Below, in pieces: positions 10,922-52,338 of a stretch of DNA of 64,000 bases. A program made the position numbers and the translations under genes. The DNA lies in the NCBI GenBank assembly GCA_024277525.1, contig JAJRUZ010000008.1:20091-84090 (forward strand). Reading direction: 5' to 3'. The stretch comes from a candidate division WOR-3 bacterium. Its GTDB lineage: Bacteria; Hydrothermota; Hydrothermia; Hydrothermales; JAJRUZ01. The notes beneath the pieces were generated by a model. That model did no database searches. It saw only the letters and a program-made list of their open reading frames with translations, and was not told where the DNA came from. The first letter of the stretch is position 1. The number at the start of each line of letters is the position of its first letter.

Positions 10922-11304
10922 TTTTCCTTAGCTTTTTCAAGATAGAAGCTGACAGAAACATTCTGCACCGCATTCACTTCTTTTGTGGTCTCTTTATATC
11001 CAGGAGCTATAAATTTTAATCGATACCTTCCGGGAGACAAAGTAATTTTACCCTTCCCGTTTTTAAAGGTATAAGGAGGTAAAGGGGAACCCACAATTAT
11101 TACTTTTACATCTTTCACAGGGTCAAAAGTTTTGGCATCCAGTAATTCAATTTCAAGAGAAACTCTTTTTACTTCGGGTTTTGCAGTTTCTGTGATTGTT
11201 TCTGTTGCTTCATATGTTCTGTATGGATCCTCCTCGGGGTTGTAATAGAAACAACCCCAGGATAATAGGATTATTAAAGGTAATAATTTTAAAGTTTTCA
11301 TCAT
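10918..11304 (-). CDS. Lipoprotein, first gene of the tad operon; Ig/carboxypeptidase-regulatory-like fold.
   Basis: Signal peptide plus lipobox-like LLSWGC; a GGAGG RBS immediately upstream. Confidence 0.4.
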   Translation of the reverse strand: MMKTLKLLPLIILLSWGCFYYNPEEDPYRTYEATETITETAKPEVKRVSLEIELLDAKTFDPVKDVKVIIVGSPLPPYTFKNGKGKITLSPGRYRLKFIAPGYKETTKEVNAVQNVSVSFYLEKAKEK

Positions 11305-11383
11305 TCCTCCCTCTTTTTAATAAGTCTTAAATTTTAAAAAAAATTTCCAAAAAAGTCAAATAAAAAAATTTTTTTTCTTAAAC

Positions 11384-20478: not shown

Positions 20479-20498
20479 CCCCCCTTTATTTCAGGGGG
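20479..20498. other. GC hairpin CCCCCC-tttatttca-GGGGG, a member of the recurrent C-run/G-run hairpin family.
   Basis: Seen directly in the sequence. Related hairpins are at 28630, 47774, 49332 and 53235. Confidence 0.4.
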
Positions 20499-27997: not shown

Positions 27998-28134
27998 GTT
28001 TGACAGCCATTTATTCTAAATACTGAGAGGGTGTTTGAATAAGAGAAGTTGACATAAGATTCTTTAAAATCGAGATAAAAACCTCTATCGGATTTAAAAG
28101 AAGCAGGATGGGCAAAAAGACAGCAGGGTTATTA

Positions 28135-28250
28135 TGTTTATTGAGTTTACCAGTGTCCTTGTGTTAATCGTGTTTATTGGGTTTGTCGGGTTTATTGTGT
28201 TCTTCGCGTTTGTTGGGATTAATTGCGTTCATTGAGTTTAAAAATTTATT
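28135..28250 (+). repeat. Tandem array of degenerate 9-bp units (TTTATTGGG, TTTGTCGGG, TTTATTGTG, TTCTTCGCG, TTTGTTGGG, ...), about 12 units.
   Basis: Direct reading shows a strict 9-nt period with G at unit positions 7 and 9. Confidence 0.8.
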
Positions 28251-28261
28251 TTACGCGATGA

Positions 28262-28548
28262 ATCATCGCTACAAATCAGATAGGAGGGAAAATAAATCTT
28301 TGATGATATAAACTCCAGATAATCAGAGAATCTATCATTCATTTTTATCCTGTCAAGGAAACTCTTTAAAACATACATTCCCTTTTTCAATCTTATAACC
28401 TTTCCACTTTTCTCCAGCCTTGATAAAGCAATTTTAAGATAATAATTTCTTATCCCAGTATCTCCAGATTTTTCTTTGAAAAATAGGGCAAATCTTTAAC
28501 ACAATCAATTATTTCATCCACAATACTTTTAAAATCTTCATTTCTCAT
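28262..28548 (-). pseudogene. Decayed AbiEi-like (type IV TA antitoxin, wHTH) gene remnant with multiple frame breaks.
   Basis: Hand translation gives MRNEDFKSIVDEIIDCVKDLPYFSKKNLEILG, a stop, IRNYYLKIALSRLEKSGKVIRLKKGMYVL, and further breaks. This resembles the AbiEi N-terminal domain (...L..LG.s...lsrL.kkGkl.rl.rGvY..). No intact ORF exists. Confidence 0.35.
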
Positions 28549-28600
28549 GGTATACAAATATTGTATACTATTGGAAATCAATTTTCAAGTTTCCTTTTAA

Positions 28601-28632
28601 TTGGGTTTTTTGCGTTCATTGTGCTTGTTGGG
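28601..28632 (+). repeat. Short copy of the 9-bp repeat family (TTTTTTGCG TTCATTGTG CTTGTTGGG).
   Basis: Direct reading. Confidence 0.6.
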
Positions 28633-28648
28633 TAGAAACTCCCCTTTC
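28630..28648. other. Hairpin CCCCTTT-cttta-AAAGGGG, followed by GGGGCAGGGGA.
   Basis: Perfect 7-bp stem. Confidence 0.5.
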
Positions 28649-28753
28649 TTTAAAAGGGGGCAGGGGATGTTTAAATTCTCTTGAACTAAAGTCATTTTTT
28701 ATTACACTCTAAGGGTGTAATTAGAGTTAGGGGTCTTCAGAAATTACAACAGT

Positions 28754-28963
28754 TTATTTACTTGTGGTGGGTATAATTATATTAAGTTCTCCTGTGGGAA
28801 TGAGATTATGTAAAGAAGCATTTAAAAACTCTATACTTACTGGCTCACCTTTTTCATTATAACTAACAATTACACCTCCAGGTTCTTCAATAGCATCTAC
28901 GGGTGGATCATCTTTAAATACAATCATTAAAACATCTGACTCGGGATCATACTTTATTTTCAT
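28754..28963 (-). CDS. DUF2283-family protein (predicted antitoxin partner of DUF4258).
   Basis: MKIKYDPESDVLMIVFKDD...GVIVSYNEKGEPVSIEFLNAS matches the DUF2283 pattern (MKI.YD.e.D.lyI...). Confidence 0.7.
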   Translation of the reverse strand: MKIKYDPESDVLMIVFKDDPPVDAIEEPGGVIVSYNEKGEPVSIEFLNASLHNLIPTGELNIIIPTTSK

Positions 28964-28964
28964 A

Positions 28965-29222
28965 TCATTCCTCCTTAAAGTATTTTTTAATTTTGGTAGT
29001 ATAATAAAAAGTTATTATTTTTTTCTCATTTCCTGAAGATGTGAATATTACCCTTAATAGCCCTTTAGTCCACTTTTTCTGAGCTATTACAGTATTCATA
29101 TCACCTGCCACTACTTGAGCAGGATTTTTAAGCACATTTTCTACAATTTCTTTTGTAATTCCCATTTTTTTCTCCCATTCTTTTTGGCGTTCTTTCGCAT
29201 GTTTGGCCCATATAATTTTCAC
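28965..29222 (-). CDS. DUF4258-family protein (predicted toxin of the DUF4258/DUF2283 pair).
   Basis: 85 aa, MKIIWAKHAKERQKEW...; separated from the DUF2283 gene by 1 nt. Confidence 0.6.
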   Translation of the reverse strand: MKIIWAKHAKERQKEWEKKMGITKEIVENVLKNPAQVVAGDMNTVIAQKKWTKGLLRVIFTSSGNEKKIITFYYTTKIKKYFKEE

Positions 29223-29291
29223 TCAAAATATTATATTCCTTCAAGTCAAATTTTTCAAATATATTCAAATTGCAATTTTTATACTTCTGAG

Positions 29292-29450
29292 GTGTTTATC
29301 GCGTTTTTTTGCGTTTGTCGCGTTTGTTGGGTTTATAAATATGCGGGACGAGCGGGACGGGCGGGAAAAGCGAGAGGGGTTTGTTGCGCTTTTCGGGCTT
29401 ATCGTGTTCATTGGGTTTTTCGTGTTTATTGGGTTTTTTGCGTTGATTAT
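29292..29450 (+). repeat. Composite repeat element. A left arm of 9-mers (TTTATCGCG, TTTTTTTGCG, TTTGTCGCG, TTTGTTGGG) is followed by a TTTATAAATAT core. Then come four GCGRGANNN units (GCGGGACGA, GCGGGACGG, GCGGGAAAA, GCGAGAGGG), a right arm of 7 units (GTTTGTTGCG...TTTTTTGCG) and a TTGATTAT terminus.
   Basis: Direct reading. The layout is the same as the copies at 29587, 47062 and 49372. Confidence 0.85.
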
Positions 29451-29586
29451 ATTCTGTTTAAGCTCCATTTACAGTTTATCTTCCTTTAAATAATAAAAGC
29501 TGGCATAGAGCTCTTAAAAAGATTTTGAAATCTAAATAAAGGCTTCTGTTTTTAACATAATAAAGGTCATATTCCTGTCTATATAT

Positions 29587-29664
29587 GTCTATTGCGTTTA
29601 TAAATAGGCGAGAAAAGCGAGAAAGGCGGGAAACGCGAGACGCGTCTATTGCGTTTTTCATTTG
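29587..29664 (+). repeat. Compact copy of the same element: GTCTATTGCG, TTTATAAATAG, GCGAGAAAA, GCGAGAAAG, GCGGGAAAC, GCGAGACGC, GTCTATTGCG.
   Basis: Direct reading; it abuts the 3' end of the wecA-like gene. Confidence 0.85.
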
Positions 29665-43077: not shown

Positions 43078-44316
43078 TTATCTCTTACAGTACCATTTTT
43101 TTACAAACTCCTTATATTCCCTATCACTCTCCCTCACCTTCCTCCACCACCATTCATTCTCCACATACCATTTAACCGTCCTCTCAATTCTATCCTCCAA
43201 CCCCCAACCCCTAACCCCTAATTCCGAATCCCCAACCCCTAACCCCAATTCCCTAATTTTACTATCATCAATACTATATCTCCTATCATGCCCCGGTCTA
43301 TCTTTTACAAATTTTATCAAAGATTCGGGTTTTCCTAAAATTTTTAAAATCATTTTTACAATTTCTATATTTTCTCTTTCATTTCTTCCTGAAATATTAT
43401 AAACTTCACCTATTTCTCCTTTTTCTATAACTAAATCAACTCCTCTGGCACAGTCTTCAACATATAACCAATCTCTTTTTTGTCTGCCGTCTCCGTATAC
43501 GGGTAATGGTTTATTATTTAAGGCATTTATGGTCATCAAAGGAATTAATTTTTCGGGATATTGATAGGGACCAAAATTGTTGGATGGTCTGATGATTATG
43601 ACAGGAACTTTATAAGTATTGTAATATGCAGAACACAACCTGTCTGCTGCTGCTTTACTTGCTGAATACGGATTTTTAGGATTTATAGGGTCTGTTTCTT
43701 TAAAACTTACACCTTCAGGAGCAGGTCCGTAAACTTCATCGGTTGAAATATGGATGAATTTCCACACATTTTTATTTTTTCTTAAAGATTCAAGAAGAAC
43801 ATAAATTCCGTATACATCGGTTTTTATAAATGCATCAGCCTTTATTATTGACCTGTCAACATGAGTTTCAGCAGCATAATGAACAATTACATCTGATAAA
43901 CTGAAAAGAATATCCGTAACCTCTCGGTCCATAATATTTCCTATTACAAAAATTAACCTTTCTTCCTGAAGTAAATCCTGAACAACATCTTTTAAATCGG
44001 ATAATTTAACAAAATTTACTTTATAACCTTCTGTTTTTAATTTTATTCTTTCAAAATCTTCATTTAAGTTTTCTATTTTTACTTTTGTCTCTTTATCCTC
44101 AAAAATTCTTTTAACATTTAAAATAGTTTCCTGTTCGAGGGGAAATATTATGTTATCTTCATTTAAATAATCTTTTAAATTATCCAGATTTCCGGCATAG
44201 GTTAAAATATCAAGAACTATTATTTTATCGTTTGAATTTTTTAATTTATACCTTACAAATTCGCTACCCATAAAACCGGCACCACCGGTGACTAACAGGG
44301 TATAAGATGTGTTCAT
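43078..44316 (-). CDS. rfbB: dTDP-glucose 4,6-dehydratase with a ~60-aa insertion and a repeat-derived C-terminal insert.
   Basis: TGGAGFMGS Rossmann motif, catalytic YxxxK (YSASKAA), and the C-terminal WY..N.WW motif. Confidence 0.85.
   Translation of the reverse strand: MNTSYTLLVTGGAGFMGSEFVRYKLKNSNDKIIVLDILTYAGNLDNLKDYLNEDNIIFPLEQETILNVKRIFEDKETKVKIENLNEDFERIKLKTEGYKVNFVKLSDLKDVVQDLLQEERLIFVIGNIMDREVTDILFSLSDVIVHYAAETHVDRSIIKADAFIKTDVYGIYVLLESLRKNKNVWKFIHISTDEVYGPAPEGVSFKETDPINPKNPYSASKAAADRLCSAYYNTYKVPVIIIRPSNNFGPYQYPEKLIPLMTINALNNKPLPVYGDGRQKRDWLYVEDCARGVDLVIEKGEIGEVYNISGRNERENIEIVKMILKILGKPESLIKFVKDRPGHDRRYSIDDSKIRELGLGVGDSELGVRGWGLEDRIERTVKWYVENEWWWRKVRESDREYKEFVKKWYCKR
43186..43262. 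repeat. G-rich (sense strand) in-frame tandem duplication GAATT(G/A)GGGTTAGGGGTTGGGG inside rfbB; G-quadruplex-prone.
   Basis: Direct reading; it encodes ELGLGVGDS-ELGVRGWGL in place of the usual ELGW. Confidence 0.7.
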
Positions 44317-44318
44317 TT

Positions 44319-45383
44319 CTAAAGTTCTATTTCTGAATAATCACCGATTGAAACCCTGTAAGCTCTGTGAGAATTTTCTTTTCTGTGTAATTTTGCATAT
44401 TTACCTATCAAACTGTCTTCAAGCCTATCAATTTTTGTTATTTCAGCAGAATCAAGAACCACAGAGTTCTGAATTACAGAATCTATAATTTTAACATTAT
44501 TCCCTATGCTTGTATAGGGTCCTATGAAGGAGTTTTCAATTATTGTATTTTCTCCGATTATCACCGGACCTTTAATTGTAGAGTTTTTGATAACGGCGGT
44601 TTCTTCAATTTTCACTCTTCCTGAGATTTTAGTTTCTCCGTCTATTTTACCTTTTATATCTTTTTTTAAAAATTCATCAAGAACTATTGTATTTGCTTCA
44701 AGTAAATCATCTTTTTTTCCTGTATCAAGCCACCAGCCTTTTAGAACATGAGGAAGTACATTTCCTCCGTTGTCTAACAGACCCTGAATAGCATCTGTAA
44801 TTTCATATTCCCCTCGCCATGATGGTTTAAGGGATTCTATTATTTCATGGATTTGAGGAGTAAAGATATAAACACCTACAAGAGCAAGGTTTGAAGGTGG
44901 TCTTTTAGGTTTTTCAATTAATTTTTTAACTTTTCCGTTCGAGTTCACAACAGCAACTCCAAAAGAAGAAGGATTTGAAACTTCTTTTAACAAAATTAAG
45001 GCATCAGGATTTTCAGCTTCAAAAGTTTTTACAAAAGAACAAATGGATTCTCCTATAAGATTGTCTCCCAGATACATTATAAAAGAATCGTTTCCTAGAT
45101 AGTCTCTCGCAACTTTAACCGCATGGGCAAGTCCAAGGGGTTCATCCTGTAATATAAAAGTAAAATTATGATTCCATGGATTTTTAGAAAGTGAATCTTT
45201 TATTAAATCACCTGTCTCAGGTGCAATGATTACTCCCACATCTTTAATTCCTGCATCTTTTAATTGGTCCATAACATAGTGAAGTATTGGCTTATTTGCA
45301 ACAGGAACAAGTTGTTTGGGTATTGTATGAGTAATAGGACGCAGGCGCGTCCCTTTACCCCCAGCCAAGACAAGCGCTTTCAT
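44319..45383 (-). CDS. rfbA: Glucose-1-phosphate thymidylyltransferase (long form with a C-terminal left-handed beta-helix).
   Basis: MKALVLAGGKGTRLRPITHTIPKQL. Confidence 0.85.
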   Translation of the reverse strand: MKALVLAGGKGTRLRPITHTIPKQLVPVANKPILHYVMDQLKDAGIKDVGVIIAPETGDLIKDSLSKNPWNHNFTFILQDEPLGLAHAVKVARDYLGNDSFIMYLGDNLIGESICSFVKTFEAENPDALILLKEVSNPSSFGVAVVNSNGKVKKLIEKPKRPPSNLALVGVYIFTPQIHEIIESLKPSWRGEYEITDAIQGLLDNGGNVLPHVLKGWWLDTGKKDDLLEANTIVLDEFLKKDIKGKIDGETKISGRVKIEETAVIKNSTIKGPVIIGENTIIENSFIGPYTSIGNNVKIIDSVIQNSVVLDSAEITKIDRLEDSLIGKYAKLHRKENSHRAYRVSIGDYSEIEL

Positions 45384-45564
45384 TTTGTTTTCTCCTTAAA
45401 TAAAATACTACATCAAATATATTTATATTTTTATCCTAACACTTCCTTTCTCCTCTCCAAAAACTCCTCCCTATCATACAATATCCTAAATCCTGCTCCC
45501 TTAAGCCATAATGTATATTTTAAATTCTCAAGGGTTTTCTCTATTACATAAATATTATTTTTTC

Positions 45565-45747
45565 TTGATTTTATTTTAAAATTCTTCTTCTTTTTGTCAC
45601 TATTACAAGATAAAGTTCACCGTTTCTGGTGTCATTATATTTTTATAAATGTTCCGAAGGCTGCAAGGGAAATGAGATTTTTTCCATAGGTTGAAACAAC
45701 CTTCTTTTTTATTTGATTGAGTATGTTAGTTTTTTTCTTGGTTTTTA
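45565..45747 (-). pseudogene. Frameshifted paralog of the MNT-like mini-protein encoded at 49497..49793.
   Basis: Hand translation gives MKNLKTKKKTNILNQIKKKVVSTYGKNLISLAAFGTFIKI, a stop, then NDTRNGELYLVIVTKRRR in another frame. Compare IKKKIVSIYGDDLVSLVAFGPSIRTNFEEKEVYLVIVTK in the intact copy. Confidence 0.4.
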
Positions 45748-45998
45748 AGTTTTTCATGGGTTTTAATTAATTTGTTTTGATCTTATTATTAAATATAAAA
45801 TTTCCCATTTCGCATTCCGAATTCCGAATTTTCCTTTTCACCATTTTATCAATCCCCCTTTATCCCCCTTTTCTAAGCTGAGATCACCCATGATTTTTCC
45901 TAATAAATCACTGTATTACTTGTATAAAATTAAAAATGAAGTTATAATTCAGTCTTTAAAAAGATATTGTTAAATTGTCACATAAATGCGACCGCTAC

Positions 45999-46057
45999 AA
46001 TAATCAATCTTTTCTCGCTTTTCTTGCCCGTCGCGCCTTACCACACATCTCGCGGTG
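45999..46057 (-). repeat. Repeat-element copy in reverse orientation: GCGAGATGT..GCGCGACGG GCAAGAAAA GCGAGAAAA GATTGATTATTG.
   Basis: The reverse complement of 45999-46057 matches the GCGAGA-array plus GATTGATTAT terminus of the family. It lies immediately 3' of the HEPN gene. Confidence 0.7.
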
Positions 46058-46489
46058 TTATCCAATCTCCAAAATCTCCTTCACTTTTACAGAGAATTTT
46101 TCGGCGGACTTGAGCAGTTCTTCTGCTCCTGTTTCTGACCATTCATCATAATAATCTGCATTTTCCCTTAAAGTTTTTGCACGCTGAAAACTCTCCACCA
46201 AGTTTAAGTCCAGCTTACCTTTTTCCACATATAAAGCCCTTAATGCCACCATTAAACAATAATGGCTTTTTTCTCTATAATTCTCAGCATAAATAAGTGC
46301 TCTTGCAAAATGAAACATGGCATAATAAGCCTGAATTGTTGCCCATTTGAATTTTTTTCTTTTAAAAGAATCCTTCGCATCTTCAAGGTCTTTTAATCCT
46401 ATGTTGTATTCTTTTTCCACAAGATATTTTCCTCTTGAAAATTCTCTTAATTTTCTTTTCTTTAAACATTTTTCAAATTCAGGATTCAT
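46058..46489 (-). CDS. HEPN-domain protein (toxin of the HEPN/MNT pair).
   Basis: 143-aa all-helical protein overlapping the 3' end of the nucleotidyltransferase gene by 11 nt. Confidence 0.6.
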   Translation of the reverse strand: MNPEFEKCLKKRKLREFSRGKYLVEKEYNIGLKDLEDAKDSFKRKKFKWATIQAYYAMFHFARALIYAENYREKSHYCLMVALRALYVEKGKLDLNLVESFQRAKTLRENADYYDEWSETGAEELLKSAEKFSVKVKEILEIG

Positions 46490-47033
46490 GAGAGTTCCAC
46501 AGGGTGATACCGTTTTCTATTTCCCTGTAAAAAACAGGGTCTTTTTTCTTTATTTCCATAAATCCAATCTCGGTAACTAATATGGGCTTGATTTTTTTAC
46601 TTGAATTTATAGTTTTTTTAATTTTCGGAATCACATCCTTATTTCTTGCAATTATCACAAGGTCAATATCACTGTCTTTCCAGTTTTCTCCTCTGGATGC
46701 ACTTCCGAAAAGCGTTATTCTTATGGAATATTTTTTTATTTTTTGAACCAGGGGAAGAATATTAATTATGTTCTTTAAAACTTTTATCTGCTTAATTATA
46801 ATGTGATTGTAACTCAATGAGTATAAAAAAATACCTCCTTTTTTTCTCCTGGTGATTAACCCGTATTTACACAATTTTCTGAGAGCATAATTAATCGCTG
46901 ATTTTGAGAGTTTGATTTTTTTTCTTATTTCCTTTTCCGTAAATTCTGTTTCCGGATAATCTATAACATACTCAAGGACTCTTTGAACCGAAGTGGCAAA
47001 TACTATATTCTTCATTTCCAAAAAATTGGACAT
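46479..47033 (-). CDS. Minimal nucleotidyltransferase (MNT) with an N-terminal wHTH; antitoxin partner of the HEPN protein.
   Basis: Pol-beta NTase motif LFGSASRGENWKDSDIDLVII. Confidence 0.75.
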   Translation of the reverse strand: MSNFLEMKNIVFATSVQRVLEYVIDYPETEFTEKEIRKKIKLSKSAINYALRKLCKYGLITRRKKGGIFLYSLSYNHIIIKQIKVLKNIINILPLVQKIKKYSIRITLFGSASRGENWKDSDIDLVIIARNKDVIPKIKKTINSSKKIKPILVTEIGFMEIKKKDPVFYREIENGITLWNSHES

Positions 47034-47061
47034 CTATCCATTATAATGGAAAGTCATAAAA

Positions 47062-47180
47062 ATAATCAATGATTGAGTTTATAAATATGCGAGGCGGGCG
47101 AGACGAGTTTATTGGGTTTATCGGGTTTATAGAGTTTATTGGGTTTGTTGCGTTAATTGCGTTTGCTGTGTTCATTGAGA
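47062..47180 (+). repeat. Repeat element: AATCAATGATTGAG, TTTATAAATAT, GCGAGGCGG, GCGAGACGA, then 9-mers GTTTATTGG, GTTTATCGG, GTTTATAGA, GTTTATTGG, GTTTGTTGCG, TTAATTGCG, TTTGCTGTG, TTCATTGAG.
   Basis: Direct reading. Its AATCAA end (reverse complement TTGATT) together with the palindrome CCATTATAATGG (47038-47049) forms a -35/-10-like pair for the MNT-HEPN operon on the minus strand. Confidence 0.8.
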
Positions 47181-47221
47181 ACATATACGATGGGTTGTAT
47201 GAATGCATTTTGTTTCTTTAA

Positions 47222-47426
47222 ATATATTTATTGAATTCTTCAGGTGATATCTGTGCCTGTTTTAAAATGCCTCTTAAAGTTCCTGTTTTTAATTCTTTAT
47301 GAAGTGGAACAACACAACCCCTTTTCTCATTACCACATGACTGCCTCTTTGTCTTACTTTTTTAAATCCCATTCTCTGTAAAATTTTTATTACTTCTTCT
47401 CCTGAAAGTTCCCTAAGTTTTGACAT
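47222..47426 (-). pseudogene. hicA: hicA-like toxin gene with a frameshift in an A/G homopolymer region.
   Basis: Hand translation gives MSKLRELSGEEVIKILQRMGFKKVRQRGSHVVMRKG, then out-of-frame VVPLHKELKTGTLRGILKQAQISPEEFNKYI. Both halves match HicA, but no intact ORF of 60 aa or more is present. Confidence 0.45.
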
Positions 47427-47625
47427 CTATTTCAAAGGTGGTAATAAGGGGACGTCCTACTTCAGGATGTCCGAATTCTTCCAGATAAAGTTCTGTTGCT
47501 TCTTTTAAATTATTGATTGTTTCCTCTATGGTATAACCCTGACTCACTGTTCCAACTTCCGGACACTCGGCAACCCACATGTCTTCTTCTTTATAAACTA
47601 CTGCTGTAAATGTTTTTGTTTTCAT
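47413..47625 (-). CDS. hicB: HicB-family antitoxin (UPF0150).
   Basis: 70 aa, MKTKTFTAVVYKEEDMWVAECPEVGTVSQGYTIEETINNLKEATELYLEE. Confidence 0.65.
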   Translation of the reverse strand: MKTKTFTAVVYKEEDMWVAECPEVGTVSQGYTIEETINNLKEATELYLEEFGHPEVGRPLITTFEIDVKT

Positions 47626-47652
47626 AATTTTTATATTACACTCCCTTTAATT

Positions 47653-47669
47653 GTGAATGCAATATTCAC
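47653..47669. promoter_or_regulatory. Palindrome GTGAAT-gcaat-ATTCAC about 28 nt upstream of hicB; candidate operator.
   Basis: Perfect 6-bp inverted repeat read directly. Confidence 0.35.
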
Positions 47670-47757
47670 GCTTTACCACACATCTCACAATTTTATCAAT
47701 CAACGCAATAATCCCGACAAACACAACAAACGCGATAAACACGACTCGCATTTTTAA
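47660..47757 (-). repeat. Repeat-element copy in reverse orientation. The reverse complement reads TTGATTAAAAATGCGAGTCGTGTTTATCGCGTTTGTTGTGTTTGTCGGGATTATTGCGTTGATTGA.
   Basis: Direct reading; it shares TTACCACACATCTC with the copy at 46036. Confidence 0.7.
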
Positions 47758-47773
47758 TCAATCCCCCTTAATC

Positions 47774-47801
47774 CCCCTTCGCCAAAGGGGAGAATTTTTT
47801 T
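47774..47801 (+). terminator. Hairpin CCCCTT-cgcca-AAGGGG followed by AGAATTTTTTT (intrinsic-terminator-like, plus strand). It is part of a 34-nt exact duplicate of 49318-49351.
   Basis: Stem, loop and T-tract read directly. Confidence 0.45.
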
Positions 47802-47846
47802 ATTTCCTTTTTCACCGTAAACCCATCCACTCACCGTTTTGCTTTC

Positions 47847-47890
47847 CTCCTTTCTCGCCTTTCTCGCATTACCACCCGTCTCGCATTTTA
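47847..47890 (-). repeat. GCGAGA-array module in reverse orientation (reverse complement: AAAATGCGAGACGGGTGGTAATGCGAGAAAGGCGAGAAAGG); it supplies the last codons (MRDGW, stop) of the DUF4143 ORF.
   Basis: Direct reading. Confidence 0.7.
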
Positions 47891-49153
47891 ACCCATTTCC
47901 AGAAAGGTAATACTCTGCAGGTTATACCTTCTTTTTTTTCTTCATATTCCTGATCACGGGTTATTATTATTCCTGATTTTAGGTTTAAAAATTTACAGGC
48001 TTTTATAAGCCCTTCTATCTCCCTTTTTTTATTTTCTGAATTTATCTCCCATGTGACCTGGATTGCCTGCAATTTGCCATTATTTTTAACCACAAAATCG
48101 CATTCGCCATCTTTATTAAAATAGTATATCTCATATCCTTTTCTTTTCAGTTCAAGAAAAACCACATTTTCCAGCAACCTGCCGTAATCTTCGGATTTGA
48201 CTCTTTTTGCAAGACCTGTATCAACAAGATAAATTTTTGGGTGGATTCCTCATTCTTTTATAGGAAGATTCGGAAAAAATCCTGCTTTCGTATACGAGCA
48301 TGCTTTCAAGAAAATATCTGTAGTAGGAAAAAAGGGAATCTTTTGAAAAAGGGAATTTACCTTTATATTTTTTATAGAAAGAAATAAGGGAAAATCGGGA
48401 TGAAAAGGAGGAGAAAAGGTTCTCCTGCAGGGTTTTCAGCAGGGTTATATTTGTTATATTGAATCTTTCCACAAGGTCTTTGAAGAACATTGCATCAAGA
48501 TATTGGCTTAAAATCTTTTTTCTCATGAATTTTTCTTCAATAAAAGAGACCTCAGGGAAACCACCCCATTCAAGATACTCATTAATATAAGCTTTTAAAA
48601 TTGACTTTTTTCTCCCATAAATCTCTTTTGTTTCAAATTTTTTTGCTCTTAGAAATTCGGTGAAGGAAAAGGGGTAAACCTCATATGTCCATGCCCTTCC
48701 CCTTAAAGAAGCATGTATTCTGGAAGGAGTTATCTCCGAAGAGGAACCTGCAACATAAACATCTATGTTCTCCCTTTCAACCAGTCTCCTGACAAATTTT
48801 TCCCATCCCTTTATATTCTGTATTTCATCAAATAGAAAAATTACTTTTTTTTCTTTAACAAGGCGGGAATTGAGTTCAAAGAAAATATCCTTGATTTTTT
48901 CAAGGTCATCCAGGGTTATTCCCTCAAGTCTTTCATCTTCAAAATCTATATAAAGGGCTTTTTCAGGATTTTTTTTAAATACACTGTAAAGCACAAATGT
49001 TTTGCCACTCCTTCTGACTCCATAAATGACTTTAACTTTTTTGAGTTTTTGAGGGAAAACAATACCTTCCCTCTCTATTATATTTTTTATTTCATTATTT
49101 ATAAATTCTCTGCCCGTAAGTATTATTTCTTTTATTGTATCAGAACTGACCAT
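47869..49153 (-). pseudogene. COG1373-type AAA ATPase (AAA_14 plus DUF4143) split by a frameshift into 48221..49153 and 47869..48177.
   Basis: The N-terminal ORF has a Walker A (GVRRSGKT) and Walker B (VIFLFDEIQ). The C-terminal ORF is a DUF4143-like domain. The two are in different frames. Confidence 0.6.
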
Positions 49154-49217
49154 TTTATTTTGTCCTTTTCAGAAGTATATTTTAAAGAATTTTTGTCCTT
49201 TTTTCAAGGAAAATTTT

Positions 49218-49462
49218 GGTTTATAAAAAGGCGAGACTGGCGAGAAAAGTTATTTTCATATCTTTTATTTTTTCCTTTCTTGCGTTTCTCGCATTACAAC
49301 CCGTCTCGCAGTTTATTCAATCCCCCTTAATCCCCCTTCGCCAAAGGGGAATTTGTGCGATAAATCGCACCGCAACATAATCAATCTTTTCTCGCTTTTC
49401 GCGCACGTCTCGCCTTTCTCGCATACTTGTAACACGATAAACACGATAAATACGTTAACATG
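49218..49462. repeat. Cluster of repeat modules in mixed orientation. Forward GGTTTATAAAAAG, GCGAGACTG, GCGAGAAAAG (49218-49249). Reverse GCGAGA module (49276-49312). Hairpin duplicate (49318-49351). Palindrome GTGCGAT-aa-ATCGCAC (49354-49369). Reverse full element (49372-49462).
   Basis: Direct reading. The reverse complement of 49372-49462 reads ...TTTATCGTG TTTATCGTG TTACAAGTAT GCGAGAAAG GCGAGACGT GCGCGAAAA GCGAGAAAA GATTGATTATGTT. Confidence 0.8.
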
Positions 49463-49496
49463 TTTCACGGTTTTTGCTCTCACACTCTTCCGGTTT

Positions 49497-49793
49497 TCAC
49501 CATTTTTTTATTATGTCCTCAAAAAATTTGTCCTTGTCATAAAGAATTTTTAACTCCGCACCTTTGAGCCACAAATTTTTTATTTTAATGGATTCCGGCT
49601 CTTTATGGATGGTAAATATTTTATAAGGAGAAAAATTCAACTCCGCCTTTTTTTCACTGTTCTTTGTCACAATAACTAAGTAAACTTCTTTTTCTTCAAA
49701 ATTTGTCCTTATGGAAGGACCGAATGCAACAAGAGATACTAAGTCATCTCCGTATATAGAGACAATCTTCTTTTTTATTTTATCCAGCACCAA
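49497..49793 (-). CDS. Small MNT-like protein with a degenerate, probably inactive nucleotidyltransferase motif.
   Basis: LVSLVAFGPSIRTNFEEKEVYLVIV aligns to the hGSxxRG...DhDhhV NTase motif but lacks the catalytic residues. A decayed paralog lies at 45565-45747. Confidence 0.4.
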   Translation of the reverse strand: MVLDKIKKKIVSIYGDDLVSLVAFGPSIRTNFEEKEVYLVIVTKNSEKKAELNFSPYKIFTIHKEPESIKIKNLWLKGAELKILYDKDKFFEDIIKKW

Positions 49794-49860
49794 ACCCTTA
49801 TTACCTTTTTTTTCTTATAAAAACCGACATTTTTCATCAATTTACCTCCGATTTAATATT

Positions 49861-52338
49861 TCATTCTTTTCCATAATATTTTGAATAATATTTGTAATAA
49901 TAGTAATAATAATGGCTCCCCCTTTTCTTAGGAACCGCATTTATAACAACTCCTATGATATCGGATTTTGAAGACAATAAAATATCCCTTGCTTCCTCCA
50001 CTTCTTTAAAGTTTGTTTTTCCGTATCTTATTGTGAGAATTACACCATCCGCATAATTTGCAATATAAGCAGAATCCGCAAATAAAAGAACAGGAGTCCC
50101 GTCAATTATTACATAATCATATTCCTCTTTTAAATCCTTAATTAATTTTTTCATTTTTTCTGATTCAAGGAAAATTAAAGGATTTGCAGGAATTTTCCCA
50201 ACAGGTATCACATCTATTTTTATATCAAGCTTATCATTATGATGAGAAACATCCGTTATTGCATTTTCAATTTTTTCCTCCCCTGTTAATATGTCAAAAA
50301 GACCGGCTTCCTTTTTTATTTCAAAAATATCGGTTATATGTCCTTTTTTCTTTCTGAAATCACTGTCAATAACAATTACTTTATTTCCTTTTGAGGCATA
50401 AACAAATCCGAGATTTAACGCTACAAAGGTTTTTCCTTCTTCAGGACTCGGTGAAGTGACATAAATTACTTTGTATTTTTTATCAGGATGTGCAAATTCA
50501 AGATTTATTGAAAGCTTTCTGAAAGCCTCAAACTCCGCTGAAGAAAGGTCAGGTTCGATTATTTTTAATTCGGAACTCAAACTGTTCTTTTTAAAAATTT
50601 TACTAAAAAATCCATTCCGGTTATTTTCAATTAAAGGTATTGAGGTGTAAACAGGAAGCCCTGTTTTTAATTTTAAGATTTCAGGGTCTTTAACTGTATT
50701 ATCAATATATTCTACAATAAAAACCGTAAATCCACCTATCAATATGCTGATTATAAAAGAAAGAATAAGAATCAAAAGGGGCTTTCTTGCATTCACAGGT
50801 CTGTATGAAACAAGGGGAGGGTTTATAATTTTTAAGTCCGAAGTAACACCTGCCTCCTGTACCCTTGTCTCTTCAAGCTTCTAGGCAAAAAAGGTGTATA
50901 ATTTTTCCGTTGTCTCTCTATCCCTTTCAAGTCTTGCAAGCTGTAACTCATCCTCGGGAACATTTTCCAATTTAAGCTTTAAAGCGCTTATTTGACTTTT
51001 AACACTCTGGATTTCTGTTTTTATTGTTGATATTCTTTTTGTTATTTCTTCTTTCATCTGTTCTCTTAAGCCTTCAAGTTTTGCCTTTACCTCATAAACT
51101 TTCGGATGATTAGGAGAATAGGATTTTAATCTGCCTTTAAGTTCTGCCTCTGTTTGTAATAATTGAGAGTAAAAATTCTGAAGAACCGGATCCGAAAGAA
51201 GCGCAGGAGCAAAGTTAACGGTTGTGTCAAGTTCCTTTCCCTTTGCAAGATACTCTCCCAAATTTTTTAAAATACTCTGCTCAATCTCGAGTTGACTTTT
51301 TTTTGTTTCAAGACTCGAAATTTGGGAAATTAATGCCTGAGTAGAAGCTTTTAAATCCGCTATTTTTTTCTGCTCTTTAAAAGTCTTTATTTTTTCTTCC
51401 AGTTCAGAAAGTTTATTTTTATAAAATTCGAGTTGGGACTCGATGAATTTTCTGGACTGAATGTATTGAAGGGATTTTTCTTTTATATCTTCTTTGATTA
51501 TTAAGTCGGAAAGCACCTTTGCTATCTCATAAGCATCCTGAGGATTTCCCCAGAAAACATCTATTCTTAAAATCCCGAGAAGATTAACCCCCGGAAAGAT
51601 TGTTTTTGCAGTTACAAGCTTTTTTGAGGCTCCTTCTCCTGAAAAAGGAACACCTCCGAGTGCAGGCTCTTTTTCTATTTTATCAGCCTCCAAAACCTTT
51701 ATTGAGAGAGAATTTCTCAAAGCAAGGGCTATTCTGTCTCTGGGATAAAATGTTATGGTATAAGTTCTCTCTTTAAACTCTTTCTTTAAAGGAATTACCT
51801 TGAACTTCAAAAAGCCGATATCAAGAGATTCACCAATTTTGCCATCCAGAACCTTCTTACCATCACTTGTAAAAAGCTCCACACTATTATTTGATATTTT
51901 TAATTTAAAAGGACCGACGGGGTTCTCAAAATCCCTTATAATTTTTGTTTTTATCTTTATATCAGGCAATCCATCTTTTATATGGGTATAAAGTGAAAGG
52001 GAATCCGCAATTTTTTGAGCAAGCCTGACACTCAGGAGGTTTGATATAACTCTTTGTGTCACAGAACCGATTTGAAGGGTGGGAGTCTCCTGAACCGGTG
52101 AAAAAACACCTTCAATGGGTTTTTCATTTGAAACCCCTATGTCAAAGGTTGCCTTATAAATGGGAGTATAAGGTTTTAGAAATTGATAGAGGAGTATTAT
52201 AAAAAATGTAACCACTGCGGTTGTAATAAAAAGCCCCAGCCTTCTCAGGAATATGTTTATTATATCGTTTAAACTCAAAGTTTCTTCTTCATATGAATTT
52301 TGAAAATAAATATGATTTTTGATTTTACCTTCTTTCAT
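49861..52338 (-). pseudogene. wzc: Wzc/GumC-type polysaccharide co-polymerase fused to a BY-kinase. It has a single in-frame TAG (50881-50883) between the periplasmic/coiled-coil domain (50881..52338) and the TM2 plus kinase part (49861..50796).
   Basis: The same reading frame holds across the stop. The 28 codons between the ORFs encode the conserved pre-TM2 motif (DLKIINPPLVSYRPV). The kinase has Walker A (SPSPEEGKT) and a C-terminal Tyr cluster, YYYYYYKYYSKYY. Confidence 0.6.

Follow-up and report, generated by a model that had tools for sequence, protein, structure and literature searches.

Why should two identical copies of a short structured sequence stand on either side of a decaying gene? 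This question is raised by a 64-kb stretch of the genome of a candidate division WOR-3 bacterium (contig JAJRUZ010000008.1 of assembly GCA_024277525.1; the whole stretch is referred to as the window in the following), in which the 34-mer TCAATCCCCCTTAATCCCCCTTCGCCAAAGGGGA brackets a frameshifted ATPase gene of the AAA_14/DUF4143 (COG1373) type within an island of accessory genes. A preliminary description of the locus had considered these repeats as the duplicated ends of an insertion/excision unit or as sites of modular recombination, and their hairpin as a genome-specific motif possibly acting as bidirectional terminator. Comparison of the locus with other bacterial genomes suggests a different answer: the 34-mer most probably represents a copy of a dispersed non-coding intrastrand-triplex repeat of the kind known as PIT, BoxC or TM_ECO (Holder et al., 2015, NAR 43:10126, PMC4666352), and its layout on the minus strand, judged by sequence, is that of a class II purine-motif intrastrand triplex element.

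Exact matching has borne out the perfect direct repeat, with both copies in plus-strand orientation at 47758-47791 and 49317-49350, the second 1 nt away from the position given before; a third copy was not found in the 64-kb window, even with 3 mismatches allowed (0 expected in shuffles). Copy 1 is situated 77 nt past the 3' end of the ATPase open reading frame (ORF), copy 2 164 nt upstream of its start codon and also upstream of a promoter-like site. Together with two related sites of the window, the copies can be described as follows.

47758-47791, minus strand: triplex-motif copy 1 (34-mer); exact match, class II triplex-rule match at 47761-47790 (minus strand) and hairpin fold.
49317-49350, minus strand: triplex-motif copy 2 (34-mer); exact match and class II match at 49320-49349 (minus strand).
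28641-28669, plus strand: third triplex motif, in a sequence variant of its own, CCCCTTT cttta AAAGGGG gc(a) GGGGATG; class II match.
45852-45882, minus strand: decayed copy of 74% identity (family D7); the tandem ATCCCCCTTTATCCCCCTT is kept, the purine arm is mutated with AAGCTGAG replacing AAGGGGGA.

Read on the minus strand from 47790 to 47761, copy 1 consists of a pyrimidine arm CCCCTT, the loop TGGCG, a purine arm AAGGGG, a second loop and the mirror domain GGGGGAT. The CCCCTT/AAGGGG hairpin of the preliminary description, present in both copies with 6 bp (7 with a T-G wobble) and a loop of 5 nt, does exist, but taken by itself it has little stability (DNA folding, -5.4 to -7.0 kcal/mol; z-scores between -0.5 and -2.0); in copy 2, it lengthens to 10 bp through flanking AAT/ATT (-7.0 kcal/mol). 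It is the third domain, GGGGGAT(T) after the purine arm, that obeys the mirror rule with 0 mismatches in both copies, giving 6-7 triads, with 5 nt in the first loop and, according to the register, 5-7 nt in the second. This is the lower limit of the ITxF/PIT class, which spans 6-15 triads and loops of 1-6 nt, with at least 8 triads needed to exceed chance clearly. A scan of the window with the class II triplex rule retrieved the three motifs listed first and no other, against a mean of 0.01 (maximum 1) over 100 dinucleotide shuffles, and all three fall inside the two toxin-antitoxin/accessory islands of the window. The motif at 28641-28669, with 7 triads, 1 mismatch and a hairpin of -6.5 kcal/mol, lies within the other, small toxin-antitoxin island. 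Of the additional hairpins that had been listed as related, this one (listed at 28630) shares the structural class of the 34-mers and the one at 45852 is the decayed copy, for which folding predicts no hairpin, while those at 20479 and 53235 lack a third domain and, as plain C-run/G-run hairpins, are not members.

That the motif is not confined to this genome, as had been assumed, became apparent from a scan of the GTDB collection (one genome per species, 596 Gb) whose pattern, ATCCCCCTTNATCCCCCTT, covered nothing but the two C-runs. It gave at least 120 loci and at least 134 instances, against roughly 17 expected (18 fixed bases, uniform composition); the counts that follow refer to the matches listed. 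The hosts are metagenome-assembled genomes (MAGs) of about 20 phylum-level groups, mostly uncultivated, among them Hydrogenedentota, Desulfobacterota, Nitrospirota, Nitrospinota, Chloroflexota, Patescibacteria, Planctomycetota and Elusimicrobiota, but also Cyanobacteria, Chlamydiota, Bacteroidota, WOR-3 and others, and several genomes carry more than one unit. Although absent from the search pattern, the complementary AAAGGGG arm follows at most 9 nt downstream in 116 of the 134 instances listed. The unit of this C5T3 family, termed after its core, comprises 34-37 nt, outside of which the flanks of the loci listed are not conserved. Its consensus on the C-rich strand is AA-ATCCCCCTT-N-ATCCCCCTT-t-nnn-AAAGGGGGA and on the G-rich strand TCCCCCTTT, a loop of 3-4 nt, AAAGGGGGA, the loop T-N-A and AGGGGGATT, which amounts to 9 triads (as a G-rich strand oligonucleotide, TCCCCCTTTGAAAAAGGGGGATTAAGGGGGATT). 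The second loop is mostly TTA, and inverted pairs of units occur. With the conserved ATT(T) after the last G-run, the third strand also covers the AAA/TTT end of the stem, which explains the conserved AA, its complement, before the unit on the other strand. Compared with this consensus, the 34-mers of the window have four C instead of five in the arm and a C for T beside the loop; since both carry the same private deviations, they are close relatives of each other. It is this near-identity to the 9-triad consensus, and not the length of their stem, on which the class membership of the window copies rests.

The units, mostly intergenic, show no bias of orientation. The four gene-orientation classes around them are all represented (25/18/14/14 among the matches listed), with 14 units between convergent, 14 between divergent and 43 between tandem genes, and their neighbours in other genomes are ordinary housekeeping genes, for example those for HisG, GcpE, TIM, DnaB, SRP54 and radical SAM proteins. 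Equally, Pfam analysis of 140 flanking and 140 distant ORFs gave two sets that are both ordinary and diverse, and neither toxin-antitoxin nor mobile-gene families are among the 25 most frequent Pfam families of neighbouring genes. Ubiquity at unrelated loci, one half of what the preliminary description had named as speaking against its own interpretation, is hence a feature of the motif family, though not of the exact 34-mer. As a side observation, the endonuclease-like DUF559 was found beside the motif in 4 of the 140 flanking versus 0 of the 140 distant ORFs (L104 and three other loci) and MTES_1575 restriction endonuclease-like domains in 2 flanking ORFs, numbers which are too small to interpret.

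In its canonical form, the core with its two C-runs can be read as a direct repeat as well as a mirror repeat, since it is symmetric and does not discriminate between the two. Asymmetric cores do. In variant units with interrupted C-runs (CCTCCC, CCCCTC, TCTCCC, CTCCCC and others), present among the loci listed, the two arms of the hairpin co-vary, and the additional copy upstream has the sequence of the arm in reverse order, as exemplified by AATCTCCCC-tga-CCCCTCTTT-tcc-AAAGAGGGG, AATCCCTCT-cgc-TCTCCCTTT-att-AAAGGGAGA and AATCCCCTCT-gt-CTCCCCTT-taca-AAGGGGAG. With a scanner requiring both a perfect hairpin and a third domain, interrupted cores follow the mirror rule in 68 cases versus 11 for the direct-repeat rule, most of the latter being ambiguous sub-windows, and the direct-repeat reading was consequently rejected. 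Neither ordinary base pairing nor a protein that binds the duplex has any use for a mirror repeat, whereas a third strand in the major groove requires one, which leads to the triplex reading. The three-way co-variation argues that the triplex rule itself shapes the sequences of the C5T3 family. In this context, it is of relevance that the rule was recovered by a search that did not presuppose a triplex, first through the complementary arm, then through the mirror third domain and its tolerance of A or T opposite A-T pairs, in MAGs of about 20 phyla and on viral contigs.

Where an A-T pair interrupts the core, the base facing it in the third domain of the G strand is A in 48 and T in 31 cases (loci listed). 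As both bases are allowed in the reverse-Hoogsteen purine motif and only one in the RNA-compatible pyrimidine motif, the G-rich DNA strand, not RNA, is indicated as the folding species. This comparative argument bears directly on an element acting at the RNA level, in which the C-run would sequester one of two Shine-Dalgarno (SD)-like AAGGGGGAU in front of a small hydrophobic ORF or in which a C-rich RNA would form a pyrimidine-motif triple helix. Copy 1 invites such a view, being followed on the minus strand by an ATG at 47750 that opens a 34-codon hydrophobic ORF resembling a type I toxin leader, and its GGGGG is able to pair with the anti-SD sequence. Copy 2, on the other hand, lacks such an ORF, and 93 of the 134 units listed have no start codon 2-13 nt past the G-run, while the few ORFs found are unrelated; an SD-sequestering leader or type I toxin was ruled out on this count. 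A pyrimidine-motif helix is incompatible with 39% of the third-domain bases opposite A-T pairs, according to work cited by Holder et al. (2015; PMC4666352), RNA does not form triplexes of the purine motif, and Rfam gave no relevant family at E<=10 in 45300-49900 nor at gathering score in 12 motif-bearing loci. A role of the 34-mer as an RNA element is, all considered, scarcely credible.

Almost as far-fetched is the assignment of the copies as intrinsic, possibly bidirectional, terminators that insulate the cassettes of the island. The copies are intergenic and copy 1 on the plus strand forms a 6-bp stem followed by AGAATTTTTT; this T-run is, however, the only one and occurs where no gene ends. 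The genes of the island are all encoded on the minus strand, on which neither copy precedes a T-run, and copy 2 matches the terminator pattern on neither strand. In the family consensus, the T/A runs are located inside the stem or the third domain, with none directly after the stem. A third domain is not needed by a terminator and yet co-varies, and divergent and convergent intergenic sites are equally frequent (14 vs 14, matches listed). Furthermore, PIT elements showed neither promoter nor terminator activity in the work that Holder et al. (2015; PMC4666352) cite. The terminator reading was dropped after the scan of the copies and of the family consensus.

How could an intrastrand-triplex repeat then operate at this locus? 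On the G-rich minus strand, the pyrimidine arm would pair with the purine arm to form a hairpin, into the major groove of which the third G-rich segment, mirror of the purine arm, would fold back, with predicted reverse-Hoogsteen triads of G on G-C and of A or T on A-T. As the literature on such elements suggests, the triplex would form only while the G-rich strand is transiently single-stranded during replication, transcription or repair, and the element would have neither a promoter nor a terminator role; its main consequence might be that its surroundings become prone to indels and rearrangement. The two 34-mers would flank the ATPase pseudogene through their scatter over the spacers of a decaying island, not as borders of a mobile unit.

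Several observations weigh against this interpretation. The copies of the window are at the weak end of the class with respect to both triad number and second loop, stems of 6-7 nt are common by chance (Holder et al., 2015; PMC4666352), and ViennaRNA gives only a modest Watson-Crick hairpin. In E. coli, in vivo footprinting detected no stable triplex, and the link to instability is correlative and shown for this species only (PMC4666352). The units are mostly intergenic, yet 39 of the 134 instances listed overlap an ORF, a figure that includes possibly spurious overlaps because ORFs at the other loci are crude calls. Finally, comparison within the lineage is confined to one distant relative with a different ATPase at the same spot.

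The bracketed gene and its surroundings, to which the alternative explanations of the repeats refer, comprise the following features.

45384-49860, minus strand: accessory island of 4.5 kb, from ORFs, Pfam and frameshift analysis.
47869-49153, minus strand: AAA_14/DUF4143 (COG1373-type) ATPase gene, disrupted; Pfam matches on two ORFs and frame repair.
49179-49207, minus strand: sigma-70-like promoter candidate of the ATPase gene, downstream of the repeat modules; TTGAAA, 17 nt, TAAAAT.
47838-47890, plus strand: TCTCGC-array module with 25-mer copy 1; family D3, 25-mer match and translation.
49263-49315, plus strand: TCTCGC-array module with 25-mer copy 2, directly 5' of triplex-motif copy 2; family D3.
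49227-49417, no strand assigned: inverted GCGAGA/TCTCGC arrays with arms 49227-49249 and 49395-49417, 87% complementary; inverted repeat I1.
47700-47745, no strand assigned: period-9 array of the AAYNCNATA type; families D1/D2, period-9 arrays of the Tandem Repeats Finder (TRF).

ORFs, Pfam and frame analysis confirmed that the repeats bracket a split ATPase gene. ORF 48221-49153 matches AAA_14 and ORF 47869-48177 the C-terminal end of DUF4143, and the split is a +1 frameshift caused by a single surplus A in the A5 run 48234-48238; with one A deleted, a continuous protein of 427 aa is obtained (Pfam: AAA_14, 6e-35; DUF4143 positions 2-159 of 160, 6e-15). The promoter candidate, assigned by consensus match alone, agrees with 10 of 12 consensus positions. 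The island as a whole is situated within a polysaccharide-synthesis cluster, between glucose-1-phosphate thymidylyltransferase-like and Wzc-like kinase genes; the nearest named homologue of the kinase is annotated as candidate division WOR-3, and the G+C content of the window is low, about 32%. Its genes, all accessory and all on the minus strand, are arranged in cassettes with repeat-mosaic spacers between them: a frameshifted nucleotidyltransferase-like (NT-like) pseudogene, HEPN+MNT, HicA (frameshifted)+HicB, the frameshifted ATPase and a small NT-like ORF. Downstream of the repeat modules, a separate promoter-like site was found for every cassette scanned. With three frameshifted genes in 4.5 kb, all at or near homopolymers, and the long housekeeping ORFs of the window intact, real gene decay seems likelier than assembly error. 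The second, small island (28000-29660) contains DUF2283 and DUF4258 genes according to Pfam. As details of decay, HicA (47222-47426, minus strand) is frameshifted near a AAAAGGGG run, and the NT-like gene at 45430-45757 (minus strand), a paralogue of 49497-49793, has at least 2 frameshifts.

Do the repeats then mark the ATPase gene as a mobile cassette? The Pfam scan of the island, which covered the HEPN, MNT, HicA, HicB and ATPase ORFs, gave no recombinase or transposase, and the unassigned NT-like ORF and the flanking genes, as read from their translations, do not resemble one. As, in addition, more than 100 other genomes carry the unit with unrelated, mostly housekeeping genes on either side, an insertion/excision boundary, be it an att site or a target-site duplication, was discarded. 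Recombination sites of a site-specific kind, resembling integron attC or the att sites of an integrated element, have a negligible chance of being the answer. A row of small same-strand cassettes, mostly toxin-antitoxin, with structured repeats in between does resemble a cassette array. Against this stand the lack of an R''/L''/L'/R' organisation and of a GTTRRRY core in the 34-mer, the lack of an integrase among the Pfam-scanned ORFs of the island and of an apparent one in the translations of the adjoining genes, the separate promoter-like sites of the cassettes and the presence of the same unit beside housekeeping genes in other genomes.

What has been retained from the preliminary description is modularity of the spacers. 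The 25-mer TTCTCGCATTACMACCCGTCTCGCA occurs at 47861-47885 (M=C) and at 49286-49310 (M=A), 3-6 nt away from the positions formerly assigned to it, and indeed in swapped order relative to the hairpin, 70 nt 3' of the first 34-mer and 7 nt 5' of the second. It forms the core of a 53-nt module (family D3) with 85% identity between 47838-47890 and 49263-49315; the ATPase ORF reaches into the former with its final codons and its stop (MRDGW*). The inverted arrays 49227-49417 enclose the second 25-mer module plus the triplex-motif copy 2. A MITE was considered for the arms 49227-49249/49395-49417 and rejected, as they consist of opposed GCGAGA nonamer arrays and not of unique terminal repeats. At least four module types are common to the spacers at about 46000, 47700-47890 and 49215-49458, where they appear in differing order, and in both islands the spacers are mosaics of GNGTTTATT arrays, GCGAGAnnn arrays, a TTGnGTTTATAAA box and the C-run unit. 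The AAYNCNATA-type period-9 family, which is not part of the triplex motif, is also present at 28124-28235, 29296-29450, 47100-47180 and 49430-49458.

With respect to the individual modules, degenerate period-9 arrays GNGTTTATT (in reverse AAYNCAATA) fill the spacers of both accessory islands, in plus orientation at 28124-28235, 28597-28636, 29296-29450 and 47100-47180 and in reverse at 47700-47745 and 49430-49458, with a further array at 11300-11360 of the related contig L124 described below; as a guess, they might be phased A/T tracts upstream of promoters or protein-binding iterons. A second period-9 family, (GCGAGAnnn)n, which holds the 25-mer, occurs in both orientations and often in phase with the GNGTTTATT arrays, as GCGAGA at 29343-29375, 29606-29645, 47088-47103 and 49231-49247 and as TCTCGC at 46007-46059, 47838-47890, 49263-49315 and 49386-49425; the TTGnGTTTATAAA box precedes such arrays at 29327, 29592, 47073 and 49215, and in L124 the family was not found. 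Short palindromes with GCGAT...ATCGC recur beside the modules (49351-49376, 28250-28276, 45985-46000), one of which, GTGCGATAAATCGCAC, stands directly after the 34-mer copy 2. Equally, at Hydrogenedentota loci a second conserved hairpin of the gcacaacgctttgcgttgtgc type directly follows the triplex motif.

Such mosaics can also be seen as portable homology, with the 34-mer, the TCTCGC module and the period-9 arrays used for inserting, swapping or deleting accessory genes and the two 34-mers as the footprint or the future substrate of an exchange. This shuffling of cassettes is compatible with the identity of the 34-mer as a triplex repeat and, while clearly short of being probable, is a possibility that deserves consideration. 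The spacers are built from the same modules in differing orders, the scanned cassettes each possess a promoter-like site downstream of the modules, and triplex motifs have been associated with rearranged regions in E. coli (PMC4666352). In the nearest relative, L124 (JGI contig Ga0209426_1000255), whose Wzc-like protein is 64% identical, the Wzc-like gene is directly followed by that of a different AAA ATPase (ATPase_2/DUF234; identity of about 21%, covering part of the ATPase domain, with a weak E-value of 0.004), preceded by the same AACNCAATA period-9 array just upstream of the ATPase promoter-like site, in the syntenic spot; triplex motifs with a C6 core are found elsewhere on the contig. 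This comparison with one distant relative fits an accessory-gene hot spot flanked by these repeats as well as the connection of triplex motifs with local rearrangement that has been published. On the other hand, an allele with or without the ATPase was not found, and synteny to the single, distant relative is lost past the Wzc-like gene. The module order P-T-gene-T-P is furthermore unlike the outcome of a simple duplication or a single crossover. Also, with 34 identical bp, the copies are close to the minimum length at which RecA-dependent exchange is efficient. Recombination between the 34-mers would delete 1559 bp including the pseudogene and leave the junction GACTCGCATTTTTAA-34-mer-ATTTGTGCGATAAATCGC. 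From the initial claim, the modularity of the spacers thus stands, and the duplicated insertion ends do not.

The near-identity of the unit throughout distant phyla and on viral contigs would find its explanation in a tiny mobile element of the REP/MITE type, copied by a transposase in trans. The C5T3 motif is present on 45 predicted viral/proviral IMG/VR contigs (L126-L170) with the closing purine arm in 39 of 48 instances; together with the recurrence of the same 19-mer in about 20 phyla among the matches listed, its multi-copy, dispersed occurrence without orientation bias and the near-identity of copies within a genome (the 34-mers here, TM_ECO in E. coli; PMC4666352), these contigs speak for mobility. 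Past the 34-37-nt unit there are, however, no conserved flanks, target-site duplications or terminal inverted repeats, the REP hallmark GTAG is absent from the unit, and transposase families are missing from the 25 most frequent Pfam families of its neighbours. Holder et al. (2015; PMC4666352) did not find TM_ECO associated with mobile elements. Moreover, the triplex rule already covers every conserved position, so that convergent selection or drift offers an alternative to mobility, and a mobile element of this type is on balance unlikely. Several IMG/VR contigs share the left flank atttc[ag]gtta[ag]gt[tc]cat[ag]at[tc]tcaa, and these conserved flanks suggest that one phage group might carry the motif at a fixed site.

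With the 34-mer considered an intrastrand-triplex repeat, the perfect direct repeats at this locus provide no evidence for the ATPase gene as a mobile cassette with duplicated ends, and upon annotation neither an insertion boundary nor a terminator should be called at the 34-mers. The range of intrastrand-triplex repeats is equally widened well past Proteobacteria and Cyanobacteria, where they have been described. If the motifs promote local rearrangement, their position in the spacers would be relevant for the turnover of toxin-antitoxin/ATPase islands. A bolder proposition, to be entertained with considerable doubt, is that the C5T3 element (AA-ATCCCCCTT-N-ATCCCCCTT-N4-AAAGGGGGA) constitutes a distinct bacteria-wide family of triplex repeats, also on viral contigs, with its three domains in register. 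If true, the three-way co-variation would represent comparative evidence for in vivo selection on the fold beyond the experiments in E. coli, it would imply an unknown route of spreading by a trans-acting enzyme or phage carriage, and the element would, together with the period-9 arrays, mark hot spots of accessory-cassette exchange in this lineage. A literature search for the literal sequences of the motif retrieved no paper. In the search for close relatives, exact-protein look-ups gave no match, and the lineage-specific hairpin ATCCCCCTTCGCCAAAGGGGA was matched in metagenomes by only three contigs, unrelated ones with a G+C content of 43-72%.

Among known systems, several share single traits with the 34-mer. 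Rho-independent terminators have in common with it a G+C-rich intergenic hairpin, with a T-run on one strand of one copy, but the motif shows no consistent T-run or orientation rule and possesses the extra co-varying third domain. H-DNA likewise involves a mirror repeat in a purine tract and Hoogsteen-type binding of a third strand; it arises, in contrast, from supercoiled duplex and needs the mirror repeat alone, whereas the 34-mer strand also has the complementary pyrimidine arm, so that one strand supplies all three. The REP/BIME sequences of Enterobacteria resemble the 34-mer as short structured intergenic repeats combined with other modules into mosaics, and REPs have been reported beside decaying toxin-antitoxin loci (Mine et al., 2009, as cited in PMC4666352). 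The 34-mer unit differs from REPs by the lack of a GTAG-type head and by its mirror third domain, which REPs do not have, and no RAYT transposase was seen in the 64-kb window.

Cyanobacterial STRRs are heptamer repeats. In this respect, loci with the triplex motif are also rich in tandem arrays of 7-9 nt, represented in the window by the nonamers and one in-frame heptamer array; these arrays are separate from the 34-mer, and their relation to the triplex motif is co-occurrence only. At the loci L001-L123, strong short tandem arrays are mostly heptamers (43 of 68) of many unrelated sequences, for example L105 7261-7439 (GAGTAAG x25) and L076 5345-5405 (TCAGGTG x8.7), with some octamers and nonamers, such that STRR-like arrays co-occur with triplex motifs well outside Cyanobacteria. 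The heptamer array of the window (43197-43256, CCCCAAC/CCCCTAA type) resembles STRR repeats and lies in frame in the dTDP-glucose 4,6-dehydratase-like ORF 43078-44316 (minus strand), where it encodes an extra GLGVGDSELGVRGWGLE stretch, inside which an aligned short-chain dehydrogenase/reductase (SDR) homologue has an 8-residue gap.

The closest counterpart is TM_ECO, the BoxC/PIT element first described by Hoyne et al. (2000), as referred to in the report that revisited it (Holder et al., 2015; PMC4666352). TM_ECO, with the pattern CCCTCNCCC N3-6 GGGNGAGGG N3 GGGNGAGGG, is of the class II purine motif; its domains measure 9 nt, and in most cases the second loop reads T-T-A. It is located exclusively between genes, with no preference for strand, distance or gene function, often consists of two units in inverted configuration with near-identical copies in one genome, forms a stable triplex in vitro as a single G strand and is associated with raised sequence variability and rearranged regions among E. 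coli strains (PMC4666352). Sequences of the TM_ECO/BoxC pattern (CCCTCTCCC...GGGAGAGGG-tta/tca-GGGTGAGGG) were also observed at L009 4602-4640 and 4693-4730, L068 2700-2740 and L084 3973-4010, in MAGs of Schekmanbacteria, Thermodesulfovibrionia and Deltaproteobacteria, which extends beyond the Proteobacteria-only range of 2015. The C5T3 family has the same domain order of pyrimidine arm, loop, purine arm, loop and mirror domain with dimensions of 9 / 3-4 / 9 / 3 / 9 versus 9 / 3-6 / 9 / 3 / 9 in TM_ECO, and shares the TTA second loop, the tolerance of A or T opposite A-T, inverted pairs and a multi-copy intergenic occurrence without bias of strand or function. It differs by its C5T3/A3G5 core (TCCCCCTTT...AAAGGGGGA...AGGGGGATT) instead of CCCTCNCCC...GGGNGAGGG and by its hosts, which are not Proteobacteria but a WOR-3-like genome of low G+C and about 20 phyla, most of them uncultivated, with the copies of the window shortened to 6-7 triads. 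With their C4-5 T2-3 core, the latter do not conform to the TM_ECO/BoxC pattern proper, but would represent the same architecture in another sequence family: the plan is a known one, its core one that Holder et al. (2015; PMC4666352) do not describe.

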